Origin: an uncultured Gemmatimonadales bacterium
GTDB lineage: Bacteria > Gemmatimonadota > Gemmatimonadetes > Gemmatimonadales > Gemmatimonadaceae
Direction: 5' to 3'
NCBI GenBank assembly: GCA_963701965.1
Contig: OY969695.1
Span: forward strand, 2,496,001 to 2,560,000
DNA: 64,000 bases
This document shows positions 58,904-64,000 of the stretch, in pieces; the first letter of the stretch is position 1; each line of letters starts with the position of its first letter. The notes below the pieces were generated by a model, which worked only from the letters and a program-made list of their open reading frames with translations, ran no database searches and was not told the origin of the DNA. A program made the position numbers and the translations under genes.

Positions 58904-60134
58904 ATGCCTCTCGCCAGCCGCCGTCAGACGGTAACCGCCTCCGTGGGCGGTGTCGCGATCGGATCCGCGCACCCGATCGTCGTGCAATCCATGACCAACA
59001 CCGATACTGCCAATGCCGCCGCCACCGCGGAACAGGTGGTCGCGCTCGCCCGGGCGGGCTCGCAGCTGGTGCGGATTACGGTCAACAACGAGGAGGCCGC
59101 GGCAGCGGTTTCCGGGATCGCCGAACGGGTCGCCGACCTCGGGGTCACCGTCCCGCTCGTCGGCGACTTCCACTACAACGGCCACCTGCTGCTCGCCAAA
59201 TACCCGGCCTGCGCCCGCGCGCTGGCCAAGTACCGCATCAACCCGGGCAACGTCGGCGGCAAACGCCGCGACGAGCACTTCCGGCAAATCGTCGAGATCG
59301 CGCTCGACAACGACAAACCGGTCCGGATCGGCGTGAACTGGGGATCCCTCGACCAGGATCTCCTCACCACCATGATGGATGAGAACGCCGGGCGCAGCGA
59401 GCCGCTCGAATGCGCGCGACGTCATGATCGAGGCCATGATCGAAAGCGGCCTCCGCTCGGCCACCCTCGCCGAATCCGTGGGCCTTGGCCACGACCGCAT
59501 CCTCATCTCGGCCAAGGTGAGCCTGGTGCCGGACCTGGTCGACGTCTACCGCCGTCTGGCGCCCCGCTGCGACTATCCGCTCCACTTGGGACTCACCGAG
59601 GCGGGACTGGGCACCAAAGGGGTGGTCGGATCCAGCGCGGCGCTCGCGATCCTGCTCGGCGAAGGCATCGGCGACACGATCCGGGTCTCCCTCACCCCGC
59701 GCCCGAACGGGGATCGCACCGAAGAGGTCATTGTCGCCCAACAGATCCTGCAGTCGCTCGGTCTCCGCAACTTCACGCCGCAAGTCACGGCGTGTCCGGG
59801 CTGCGGGCGCACGACATCGACCTTCTTTCAGCACATGGCCGAGGACATCCAAACCTATCTGCGCGAGCAAATGCCGGTGTGGCGGGAACAACATCCCGGG
59901 GTCGAGACCATGCGGGTCGCGGTCATGGGATGCGTGGTCAATGGCCCGGGCGAATCCAAGCATGCCAACATCGGCATCTCGCTCCCCGGCACGTTCGAGG
60001 AGCCGAAAGCCCCGGTCTACGTCGACGGCAAACTGGTCGTGACGCTGCGCGGCGAAGGCATCGTGCCGGAGTTTCTGGCCATTCTCGAGGACTACGTCGC
60101 CCGGACGTACCCTGCCGCGATGCCGGTCGCGTGA
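58904..60134 (+). CDS. ispG: HMBPP synthase (MEP pathway); probable 1-nt insertion near 59409
   Basis: [27 protein letters not shown] in one frame. [27 protein letters not shown] and [10 protein letters not shown] in the next. Confidence 0.95.
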
Positions 60135-61974: not shown

Positions 61975-62997
61975 ATGCGCGACCGCGTAATGCGCGCGAT
62001 GCTGCTGGAGGCGCCGCGCCAGCCGCTCCACATGGTCGAGTGGGCGGAGCCGACGCCCCTCGATGGGCAGATCCTGATCCACGTGCGGGCGTGCGGCGTC
62101 TGCCGGACGGATGTGCACATCGTCGACGGCGAGCTGCCGAACCCGGCGGTGCCTTTGATCATCGGCCACCAGATCGTAGGAACAGTCGCGGCCCGTGGCC
62201 CGGGCGCCGAGCGGTTCGAGATCGGGGCGCGGGTGGGCGTGCCGTGGCTGGGGTGGACGGACGAGACGTGCCGCTACTGCCGGAGCGGCCGCGAGAACCT
62301 GTGCCCGAATGCCCGCTTCACGGGCTACACGATCAATGGGGGCTACGCGGACGCGGTCACCGCCGATGAGCGCTATGCGGTCGCGATTCCCGACGACTTC
62401 ACGGACACGCAGGCGGCGCCGTTGCTGTGCGCGGGACTGATCGGATACCGCGCCTTGATGGCGGCGGGCGACGCGCGGCGGGTGGGCTTCTACGGGTTCG
62501 GGGCCTCGGCGCACCTCATCGCCCAGGTGGCGCGCTACCAGGGCCGCGAGGTGTACGCATTCACGCGCCCGGGCGATACGACGACGCAAGCGTTCGCCAA
62601 GAGTCTGGGCGCCGCGTGGGCGGGGGACTCGGACACGATGCCGCCTGAGCGGCTGGATGCGGCGATTCTGTTCGCGCCCGTGGGCGCGCTGGTGCCGACG
62701 GCGCTGCGCGCCGTGGACCGGGGCGGGGTGGTGGTGAGCGCGGGCATCCACATGTCGGCCATCCCGTCGTTTCCGTACGCGTTGCTGTGGGAGGAACGGT
62801 CGATCCGGTCGATCGCGAATCTCACGCGACGGGACGCCGAGGAATTCATGGCGCTGGCGCCGCGCGTGCCGGTGCGGCCAACGGTGACGTCGTACCCGCT
62901 GGCCCACGCCAACCGCGCGCTCGCCGATCTGCGCGCGGGCCGCGTGCGTGGTGCCGCGGTGCTCGTCATGTCCGGCACGCCGCGCTTGACACGGTGA
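61975..62997 (+). CDS. Zinc-dependent alcohol dehydrogenase
   Basis: CGVCRTD, GHQIVG, C..C...ENLC, APLLCAGLIGY, GFGAS. Confidence 0.93.
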   Translation: MRDRVMRAMLLEAPRQPLHMVEWAEPTPLDGQILIHVRACGVCRTDVHIVDGELPNPAVPLIIGHQIVGTVAARGPGAERFEIGARVGVPWLGWTDETCRYCRSGRENLCPNARFTGYTINGGYADAVTADERYAVAIPDDFTDTQAAPLLCAGLIGYRALMAAGDARRVGFYGFGASAHLIAQVARYQGREVYAFTRPGDTTTQAFAKSLGAAWAGDSDTMPPERLDAAILFAPVGALVPTALRAVDRGGVVVSAGIHMSAIPSFPYALLWEERSIRSIANLTRRDAEEFMALAPRVPVRPTVTSYPLAHANRALADLRAGRVRGAAVLVMSGTPRLTR

Positions 62998-63002
62998 GCG
63001 AC

Positions 63003-63167
63003 CGTACCTACCGGCAGCGCACCGGCATCCCCGCGTCCCTCGTGGTGGTGGGCTTGGCCGCGAACGATTTCACGATCGCGGATGCGGACGATCCCGCGAT
63101 GCTCGACGTCGTGGGTCTCGATACCACCACGCCGCAGATGATCGCGTCGTTCATGACCGACGGCTGA
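63003..63167 (+). pseudogene. C-terminal remnant of a Ro60/TROVE (Rsr-like) protein
   Basis: RTYRQRTGIPASLVVVGLAANDFTIADADDPAMLDVVGLDTTTPQMIASF resembles the Ro60 vWA C-terminus. No start codon or N-terminal part. Confidence 0.75.
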
Positions 63168-63250
63168 CAACGAAAGAGCCCCGGGAGAAATTCCCCGGGG
63201 CTCTTGTCGTTCGTATGGCGGTGGAACCGCCACGGCCGTCTCGCAAGCAC
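63168..63250 (-). ncRNA. Putative sRNA B, antisense to the neighbouring tRNA
   Basis: TTGACG-N16-TAAAAT promoter (63283-63256). 5' end is 17/18 complementary to the tRNA anticodon arm. Terminator at 63174-63205. Confidence 0.6.
63174..63205. terminator. Bidirectional terminator hairpin
   Basis: AAGAGCCCCGGG/CCCGGGGCTCTT stem. Confidence 0.8.
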
Positions 63251-63321
63251 TTTCAATTTTATATGATTCCACGCCAGCGTCAACGCTGCGGATTACCGAA
63301 TTCTACGATTGCCAACTAGCG

Positions 63322-63405
63322 TACCCGGGACGGGATTCGAACCCGCACGCCCTTGCGGGCAGCCGCTTGCGAGACGGCTGTGTCTACCAGTTCCACCACC
63401 CGGGC
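63322..63405 (-). tRNA. tRNA with tRNA-Leu body and CGC (Ala) anticodon; CCA not encoded
   Basis: Full cloverleaf: GCCCGGG/CCCGGGT+A73, D arm GTGGAACTGGTAGACAC, GCCGT-CTCGCAA-GCGGC, variable arm GCCC-GCAA-GGGC, GCGGG-TTCGAAT-CCCGT. Confidence 0.9.
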
Positions 63406-63481
63406 ACCGTTCACGCTCGGCGAAAACTGGATGGTGCGACACAGATTCATCGCAAGTGCTGCGCGACTAGCTGGCGGCGAA

Positions 63482-63631
63482 CAATGTATCGACCCGATGC
63501 GATTCGCGCATCGTTGTATTTCGCACATCATCATGACCAACAACGAAAGAGCCCCGAGGGACATCCCCCGGGGCTCCACAGCAGTCTCGCACGCACCCGC
63601 AATGTATCGGCACGATGCGATTCGCGCATCG
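63482..63631 (-). promoter_or_regulatory. Duplicated 32-bp promoter/operator (63482-63513 and 63600-63631)
   Basis: 30/32 identical. Each contains the palindrome CGATGCG-N5-CGCATCG and a TACATT -10-like box on the minus strand. Confidence 0.7.
63541..63596 (-). ncRNA. Putative sRNA A, antisense to the tRNA anticodon arm
   Basis: Begins just after TACATT. GCGTGCGAGACTGCTGTG is 16/18 complementary to the tRNA. Terminator GAGCCCCG..CGGGGCTC-TTTCGTTG is homologous to that of sRNA B. Confidence 0.55.
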
Positions 63632-63645
63632 GTGAATGTCACACG

Positions 63646-64000
63646 TCAGCGCGCGGCGACCTCGGCCCCGCGGCGTTCGACATCGTCCGTGGCGAGGCGC
63701 AGCTCGGCGAGGATCGGTGCGGTGAATCCGACCTCGGCGAGGCGATCGCTGAGCTCCCGGTAGTAGCGAATCGTGCCTTCGCGCCCGCGCAACGTCCGCG
63801 TCCAGATGGTCTCGGGATAGTCGGTGCGCCGGAGATCGGCGAGGATGGTGCCGATGCTGTGCAGCGCGTCGGCCGCGCCGACCCAGCGCGAGGCGTCAGT
63901 CGCGATGGCCAGTCGCGTGACGACATCGCGCTTGCGCTCATCGGGCGAGAGCTCGACACCGTTGTCATCCGTCCGCCGCTCCGTCACGGCCAGCGCGATC
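63646..64000 (-). CDS. HD-domain protein, small alarmone hydrolase/Mesh1-like (5' end outside window)
   Basis: VTE...ERK...AADALHS..IL.D....W.R...GREGTIRYY pattern. Confidence 0.65.
   Translation of the reverse strand, partial: IALAVTERRTDDNGVELSPDERKRDVVTRLAIATDASRWVGAADALHSIGTILADLRRTDYPETIWTRTLRGREGTIRYYRELSDRLAEVGFTAPILAELRLATDDVERRGAEVAAR

Follow-up and report, generated by a model that had tools for sequence, protein, structure and literature searches.

Why would a bacterial chromosome keep a tRNA gene with a leucine body and an alanine anticodon, behind a leader that can fold back onto it? The locus that raises this question belongs to an uncultured Gemmatimonadales bacterium (Gemmatimonadaceae; GCA_963701965.1, contig OY969695.1, positions 2,496,001-2,560,000) and lies in the whole stretch of 64,000 nt that was analysed, here called the window. 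A preliminary description had read the leader as a cis safety catch, in which the precursor folds into a long hairpin that blocks the cloverleaf and its processing by RNase P until a trigger releases it. Why a lock is needed at all was overlooked in that description: a leucine body is joined to an alanine anticodon. Also overlooked was a signal stronger than that of the leader, a small RNA that is likely transcribed separately and is antisense to the anticodon arm.

Comparison of the locus with its relatives reveals a chimeric tRNA with a conserved cloverleaf, complementarity between leader and tRNA, and a cognate antisense segment accompanied by promoter-like and terminator-like motifs (Table 1). 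The locus is probably a toxin-antitoxin system made of RNA alone, in which a mistranslating tRNA would be the toxin and control would take two steps, like that of AapA1 or Hok; expression, charging and toxicity are predicted properties.

Table 1. Features of the cassette and its flank, numbered from the first nucleotide of the window
Feature	Position	Strand	Details
Ro60/Rsr gene 3' remnant, about 50 codons, flank outside the cassette	63003..63167	+	PF25045 positions 115-165
Predicted antitoxin small RNA, about 84 nt	63167..63250	-	Antisense segment, small hairpin, then terminator-like hairpin 63205-63174
Sigma70-like promoter of the predicted antitoxin RNA, TTGACG-16-TAAAAT	63256..63283	-	Promoter scan
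3' trailer, closing helix with the leader 5' end	63311..63319	-	9/9 pairs; two-sided changes at 8/9 in alignment A1
Predicted toxin: chimeric tRNA with a type II leucine body and the Ala anticodon CGC	63322..63405	-	ARAGORN tRNA-Ala(cgc); Rfam RF00005, 50.7 bits
5' leader, predicted latch	63406..63476	-	Five blocks against the tRNA 5' half and anticodon arm, a sixth against the 3' trailer
Predicted weak precursor promoter, ATGCGC-17-TACATT	63483..63511	-	Read from the sequence; start near 63476-63478
Second, upstream antisense unit	63542..63648	-	Segment 63594-63577, terminator-like hairpin 63577-63548; repeats D2, D4, D5, I5

Identity of the chimeric tRNA

In Escherichia coli, leucine identity is reported to require A73 and D/T-loop contacts, but not the anticodon (PMC9976931). 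By sequence, the window tRNA and its family carry these elements of bacterial tRNA-Leu identity (A73, A15:U48, G18G19, A20a and the D/T-loop contacts); the window tRNA also has A14/A15, a long variable arm, a 7-bp acceptor stem and a 5-bp T stem, and lacks G3:U70. It would be charged with leucine and would misread GCG, the commonest codon of the genome (6.8%, from a crude call of 2036 long ORFs). The same genome encodes a normal tRNA-Ala(CGC) and tRNAs for all five leucine anticodons, together with two further leucine bodies with the anticodons CGC and GAC. The candidate of a dedicated synthetase was rejected, as a single LeuRS exceeded the cut-off in the genome and lies far from the cassettes; neither a dedicated enzyme nor an alanine identity pair that would give correct charging was found. 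Separately, tRNA genes called by ARAGORN (His, Trp, Glu, Glu, Asp, Leu, Thr) are tightly clustered at G000:C1:1215473-1216165 (-).

Relatives were collected by a DNA search of 61 genomes and 20 further stretches, which yielded 53 leucine bodies, 20 with non-leucine anticodons and 33 with leucine anticodons that served as controls. L011, L015, L043 and L048, which did not match the pattern, and L029 were left out of this first set, and L122 was left out for not matching the pattern of another search; the unpublished genome of L029 (G012) enters only the denominators of the 61-genome and 401-genome searches. Among 50 family tRNAs, A73 is present in 50, U48 in 49, full acceptor pairing in 48 and U33 in 48, and G3:U70 in none, while the D-loop letters, being fixed by the search pattern, carry no weight as conservation. 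Purine 37 and all stems are kept. The cloverleaf is paired in 98.3% of cells, and 17 of its 24 pairs show two-sided changes; on this comparative evidence, the family cloverleaf is under selection. A tree of the 50 cassette bodies and 33 leucine-anticodon bodies (anticodons masked, 81 columns) contains four label changes and does not settle whether the cassettes have a single origin.

The 50 loci carry 13 anticodons, including those for the eight commonest non-leucine codons of the genome (GC-matched p 0.002), in a count for which later searches left out A35 anticodons and 30 of the 50 loci were chosen by their antisense. Leucine-like bodies with the ochre-reading anticodon UUA also occur (L132, L138, L143, L145, L148 and others), several of them in Alphaproteobacteria and without a downstream antisense segment.

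A leucine body with a CGC anticodon could also serve a reassignment of the sense codon GCG to leucine. This reading is left with virtually no credence by the normal tRNA-Ala(CGC), by the variety of anticodons in the family, and by the antisense RNA, which a code change does not need. Alternatively, the tRNA-like RNA might remain uncharged or act outside translation, as a decoy, a sponge or an uncharged ribosome binder, with the small RNA as its regulator or target; some allo-tRNAs are indeed reported to be inactive in translation (PMC5389517). Such a role is decidedly unlikely here, given that the tRNAs retain the leucine determinants, U33, purine 37 and every stem, that the anticodons favour the commonest codons, and that correct charging has neither a dedicated synthetase nor an alanine pair to rely on. 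The toxin-antitoxin reading takes the tRNA as one that would enter translation.

The leader and the strength of the predicted cis lock

The five leader blocks named in the preliminary description are collinear and form an imperfect inverted repeat of the tRNA, in which 30 of 31 positions pair. The blocks at 63425-30, 63438-44, 63450-56 and 63458-62 pair completely with tRNA positions 63387-92 (6/6), 63378-84 (7/7), 63366-72 (7/7) and 63359-63 (5/5), and the block at 63415-20 pairs with 63400-05 at 5/6 positions, the remaining one being A-C. A sixth block, absent from that description, lies at 63467-75 and pairs with the 3' trailer at 63311-19.

A transcription start downstream of the blocks would leave them out of the precursor. 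In the family, the start of a -10-like hexamer lies 71-90 nt ahead of the tRNA in 56 hits among 97 members, against 1 hit at this distance in the controls (n=33), which have 19 hits at 11-20 nt upstream; the leader blocks are thus predicted to be transcribed. The predicted precursor promoter of the window agrees in position with the family peak and is overlapped by an inverted repeat (63495-63513), although the promoter scan gave no call at this site.

Folding of the minus strand from 63480 to 63322 gives the rod as the minimum-energy structure, as the earlier account had anticipated. Against shuffles of the whole sequence, the energy of the rod is ordinary (z -0.57, 50/200 as good) and uninformative; when only the leader is dinucleotide-shuffled, its duplex with tRNA positions 1-55 stands out (z -3.77, 1/200 as good). 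The forced cloverleaf lies 7.7 kcal/mol above the rod (-67.7 vs -75.4 kcal/mol), and the acceptor stem has a probability of 0.16 in the predicted precursor, both values being predictions without tertiary contacts. Stepwise folding of the window sequence predicts that the rod is in place while the 3' half of the tRNA is still to be transcribed, and that it yields once the 5' end reaches 63457.

The leader signal extends to the family in part. Leader-duplex z-scores below -2 occur in 17/20 tRNAs with non-leucine anticodons vs 2/33 with leucine anticodons, and in 12/30 antisense-positive vs 9/103 negative loci of the collection scans (among the matches listed); in the metagenome set described below they occur in 27/60 loci, so the signal is weaker beyond the close kin of the window. 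In alignment A1, which has 20 rows, the leader helix is 89% paired on tRNA positions 22-28 and 85% on positions 14-19, and the closing helix with the trailer is 74% paired. In fixed register, just 45-46% of the acceptor and anticodon leader blocks are paired, and RNAalifold on the same alignment returns the cloverleaf alone as the consensus. Leader and spacer lengths vary with indels across the family. With free offsets, a leader block complements the anticodon loop and 3' stem in 68/98 loci (controls 6/33), the trailer in 57/98 (7/33), positions 22-28 in 81/98 (19/33) and the D loop in 74/98 (17/33). The median helix length is 8 bp for the leader vs 18 for the antisense. An acceptor-stem probability below 0.2 does not separate the family (61/97) from controls with their 82-nt upstream stretch (18/33), the leader is the best partner of its own tRNA in just 2/20 rows, and the D-loop block has no excess of G-U over A-C (17 vs 19).

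The proposed safety catch is therefore borne out insofar as the leader is kept as a complement of the tRNA and is more than plain flank, but the predicted energy difference would make the lock a modest one. It is best read from these models as modest and kinetic.

A predicted small RNA against the anticodon arm

Downstream of the tRNA and on the same strand, the sigma70-like promoter of Table 1 is the sole promoter-like site in 62900-64000 (shuffles mean 0.1). Five to six bases past it begins a segment (63248-63231) that pairs with the anticodon arm (63382-63365) at 17/18 positions. For the small RNA predicted from this promoter, the predicted binding energy is -21.8 kcal/mol with the mature tRNA, -12.2 kcal/mol with the leader-locked precursor and -5.0 kcal/mol with the normal tRNA-Ala(CGC). 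The second unit, upstream of the tRNA, has at 63600-63648 a second copy of the precursor promoter region (86% identity with 63482-63530), and its segment forms 16/18 pairs with weaker predicted binding (-8.0 kcal/mol). The genome holds three cassettes in all. The two paralogous copies lie 9 kb apart (G000:C1:2795462-2795545 (-) and 2804589-2804672 (+)) with the anticodons GAC (Val) and CGC (Ala); each has its own leader and antisense unit and, with up to three mismatches allowed, the sole match of each antisense segment in the genome is the arm of its own tRNA.

In 17/20 loci of the first set, the downstream segment has its best match in the arm of its own tRNA (mean 15.5 vs 10.9 of 18), and all 33 leucine-anticodon controls score 8-11. 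The three exceptions are L010, with a bulged match, and L038 and L035, which target the 3' anticodon strand or the variable arm; in free register, 20/20 score 13-16 of 16, and 32/33 controls score at most 12. A sigma70-like promoter motif accompanies 39/50 family loci vs 0/33 controls, and the complement starts about 5 nt past the -10 motif and ends ahead of the terminator. A further set was picked from metagenomes by the pattern of a leucine body with a CGC anticodon alone, which gave 88 loci with 61 distinct tRNAs, 56 of them with enough flank; 28 duplicate tRNAs and five loci with short flanks were left out. At least 14/18 antisense positions lie downstream in 51 of these 56 loci. In four of the remaining five, the unit lies about 200 nt upstream and follows a TTGAC motif of its own, and the fifth (L255) reaches 13/18, so that a cognate antisense unit is present in 55/56 loci. 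The occasional upstream position with a promoter-like motif of its own argues for action in trans. L109 and L287 consist of tandem cassettes in which each tRNA has an antisense unit about 200 nt upstream.

The antisense segment also changes with each arm. In 36 non-overlapping close pairs of loci, 114 of 158 arm differences are compensated in the antisense segment, 20 are kept by G-U and 24 break the pair, in registers that were chosen by pairing; at positions where the arm is unchanged, the antisense changed at 33/490. With registers chosen on Watson-Crick pairs only, the duplex contains 63 G-U vs 20 A-C combinations, which is the expected pattern if this strand pairs as RNA; the excess shrinks to 17 vs 12 when distinct position types are counted, kin not being independent. 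Comparison across loci thus shows that the antisense segment covaries with the anticodon arm.

Nearby inverted repeats can be homogenised without selection. The complements might accordingly be DNA relics, that is, inverted partial duplications of tRNA genes or integration scars kept alike by template switching and without a function as RNA, and the window does contain a recent local duplication. This account is very improbable in view of the placement of the complement between the -10 motif and the terminator, its occurrence up- or downstream and against different parts of the tRNA, the excess of G-U over A-C, and its absence from leucine-anticodon tRNAs and from 99/141 other leucine-like bodies (among the matches listed). 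The toxin-antitoxin reading, with a cognate RNA acting on the arm, is preferred here.

Distribution of the cassette

By a strict pattern, 11/401 genomes of the phylum carry the cassette, all of them in the order of the window, and two to three copies occur in 4/5 genomes of the same genus. Scans of larger collections gave a bimodal distribution among the matches listed. Within these matches, 18/21 named Gemmatimonadota loci are positive in fixed register and L109 is positive upstream, 4/58 other named loci are positive (one Zixiibacteriota and three Planctomycetota), and four more Planctomycetota loci are positive in a variable-arm register. A promoter motif follows 29/42 antisense-positive vs 10/99 negative tRNAs, again among the matches listed. 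In the Planctomycetota and viral contigs L085, L098, L110, L134, L141, L056 and L069, the antisense lies against the 3' anticodon strand and the variable arm, most of these loci being without a leader signal.

Collections of plasmids and phages gave matches to the tRNA body alone (10 and 7 records) and no cassette. Among viral contigs, 22 leucine-like bodies were found, none with antisense to the anticodon arm; two contigs (L056 and L069) carry a related tRNA with variable-arm antisense. The neighbours of the cassettes, as seen in 71 ORFs from part of the loci, are varied housekeeping genes that are orthologous within the genus (MutS/TonB, radical SAM, Ro60). These orthologous neighbours, together with the lack of plasmid or phage matches beyond the tRNA body, give no sign of a mobile element that the cassette would stabilise.

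Genomic context

In the window, the cassette terminator coincides with the end of the Ro60/Rsr remnant, which directly follows an alcohol dehydrogenase gene and is the only Ro60 match of the genome; no intact Ro60 vWA domain was found in the genome. L038 and L040 have an intact rsr, with the cassette, bearing other anticodons, between rsr and rtcB. At the three rsr sites the anticodons differ (CGC, GGC and GGA), as does the targeted part of the tRNA. A deletion of rsr that stopped short of the small-RNA unit fits with addiction, as a single case. On the other side, the cassette is closely preceded by a gene for an HD-domain protein (PF13328) in the same orientation (63646-64000 (-), extending to 4368 in L001). 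Further away, what is presumably an ispG-like gene at 58904-60134 (+) is read in two overlapping frames near 59379, with a possible frameshift or sequencing error.

The adjoining remnant here, the intact rsr in L038 and L040, and the pairing of 5' and 3' ends would be compatible with a Y RNA, a YrlA-like tRNA mimic serving the neighbouring Ro60 protein. This candidate was rejected, as the cassette has neither a YrlA (RF02553) match nor a co-oriented intact rsr; with the vWA domain missing from the genome and no Ro60 among the scanned neighbours of other loci, it is barely credible. In L038 (1-159) and L040 (171-334 (+)), the strand opposite the cassette carries tRNA-like matches and weak YrlA-like matches immediately ahead of rsr; these are probably the true Y RNAs of the genus.

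A different use of the same parts would be regulated mistranslation that benefits the host. Under stress the host would lift the small RNA, and its proteome would be diversified or slowed, with neither addiction nor killing; such a benefit has been proposed for other tRNAs of dual identity. The cassette is chromosomal and inherited in place within the genus, the inverted repeat that overlaps the precursor promoter may serve as an operator, and three loci lie at the end of rsr, two of these beside rtcB. However, orthologous sites differ in anticodon, in arm sequence and in which part of the tRNA is targeted, so that no particular substitution is conserved, and few genomes carry the cassette. 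Allele-specific pairing is, moreover, typical of addiction modules. A beneficial role of this kind is, on these grounds, rather unlikely.

We lean instead towards selfish, protein-free cassettes of about 300 bp that would reside in Gemmatimonadota, Planctomycetota and a few other lineages. Each would direct a self-locked, leucine-charged tRNA against the commonest codons of its host, the small RNA would be the allele-specific key to the anticodon arm, and new specificities would arise by changes in the anticodon stem.

Proposed mechanism

From a weak promoter, the precursor would fold during transcription into an imperfect rod, with the leader on the D arm and anticodon arm and the 5' end on the 3' trailer. 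The rod would hide the processing sites and partly shield the precursor from the antitoxin. Slow refolding, or trimming of about 20 nt from the 5' end, would free the cloverleaf, which could then be processed, receive its CCA and be charged by the ordinary LeuRS of the host. The small RNA, made from the stronger promoter, would enter at the open anticodon loop and zip up about 18 bp; the duplex would block decoding and probably lead to decay of the tRNA. If the cassette were lost or transcription stopped, for example during phage infection, the small RNA would decay first and the latent pool of precursor would release its tRNA, with Ala-to-Leu errors across the proteome and growth arrest as the predicted outcome. 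A peptide toxin was rejected as a candidate, because six-frame translation of 63161-63650 contains no frame for a short hydrophobic peptide and the RNA is a covarying cloverleaf.

Natural chimeric tRNAs are reported to mistranslate (PMC5389517, PMC11415595, PMC7609411) and to be lethal to E. coli on induction (PMC5389517); the accessible parts of these accounts mention no cognate antisense RNA. If the mechanism holds, a functional tRNA would here play the part of the toxin in a toxin-antitoxin system, and a bacterial small RNA would be devoted to silencing a single tRNA by way of the anticodon arm. The mechanism would further account for a class of entries to which annotation tools give a wrong label, going by the anticodon, and studies of translation error and genetic-code engineering would gain a natural switch by which mistranslation can be titrated. 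The cassette would also offer a testable answer to why bacteria keep dual-identity tRNAs, whose host function is described as an open question (PMC11415595).

Comparison with known systems

No description of such a system was found in the literature, in which a prior report is possible among subscription papers and bioRxiv supplements beyond reach. Among chimeric tRNAs, the allo-tRNAs of Acidobacteria (8/4 and 9/3) are reported to have a long variable arm and diverse non-cognate anticodons, including GCG and GUC (PMC5389517). Their missense suppression is lethal to E. coli, and they occur near protein toxin-antitoxin genes (PMC5389517). Unlike these, the window tRNA has a canonical 7/5 acceptor branch and leucine determinants (A73), and the words antisense, complementary and leader are absent from the main text and supplement of the allo-tRNA paper, as far as these are accessible (PMC5389517). 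The dual-identity tRNA-ProX of Streptomyces and Kitasatospora, with its synthetase ProRSx, likewise combines the identity of one amino acid with the anticodon of another and is reported to cause mistranslation and a growth cost in E. coli (PMC11415595). Compared with tRNA-ProX as described there, the present tRNA differs in its leucine body, in the lack of a dedicated synthetase and in keeping U33; proline identity elements and a co-encoded synthetase isoform are both absent. The available part of the tRNA-ProX account makes no mention of a cognate antisense RNA or a locking leader (PMC11415595).

Among type I toxin-antitoxin systems, aapA1/IsoA1 and hok/Sok are reported to combine an inert transcript with long-range 5'-3' pairing, processing and refolding, and an excess of a small, cognate-specific antisense RNA (PMC5416894). 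The cassette resembles them in its antisense RNA, which by sequence is cognate-specific and has a promoter of its own. An inert precursor held by long-range pairing, followed by refolding and capture, would be a further parallel; the pairing is predicted and partly covarying, and folding does not separate the family from controls. It differs in having no toxin peptide: the toxin is not a small protein of the regulated mRNA, and the effector would be a tRNA. Furthermore, the antitoxin is no fully overlapping RNA from the opposite strand; it shares the strand of the tRNA, up- or downstream of it, and is complementary over about 18 nt.

In type VIII, SdsR of SdsR/RyeA is reported to be masked by antisense binding (PMC8610362), and CreT of CreT/CreA to act on translation through tRNA (PMC8501985). 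SdsR is an mRNA-targeting sRNA with an overlapping partner on the opposite strand, unlike the same-strand antisense found here 45-110 nt downstream or about 200 nt upstream. CreT is described as sequestering tRNAs and CreA as a CRISPR guide that represses transcription, whereas here the predicted toxin is itself a chargeable tRNA that misreads the code. No Cas family was found among the 71 neighbouring ORFs (the nearest ORFs of part of the loci, at E 1e-5), nor a CRISPR family on five loci. The cassette therefore lacks defining features of every described family tested. Type VIII could take it in under the broad definition of an RNA toxin with an RNA antitoxin, in that both partners appear, from their sequences, to be base-pairing non-coding RNAs.
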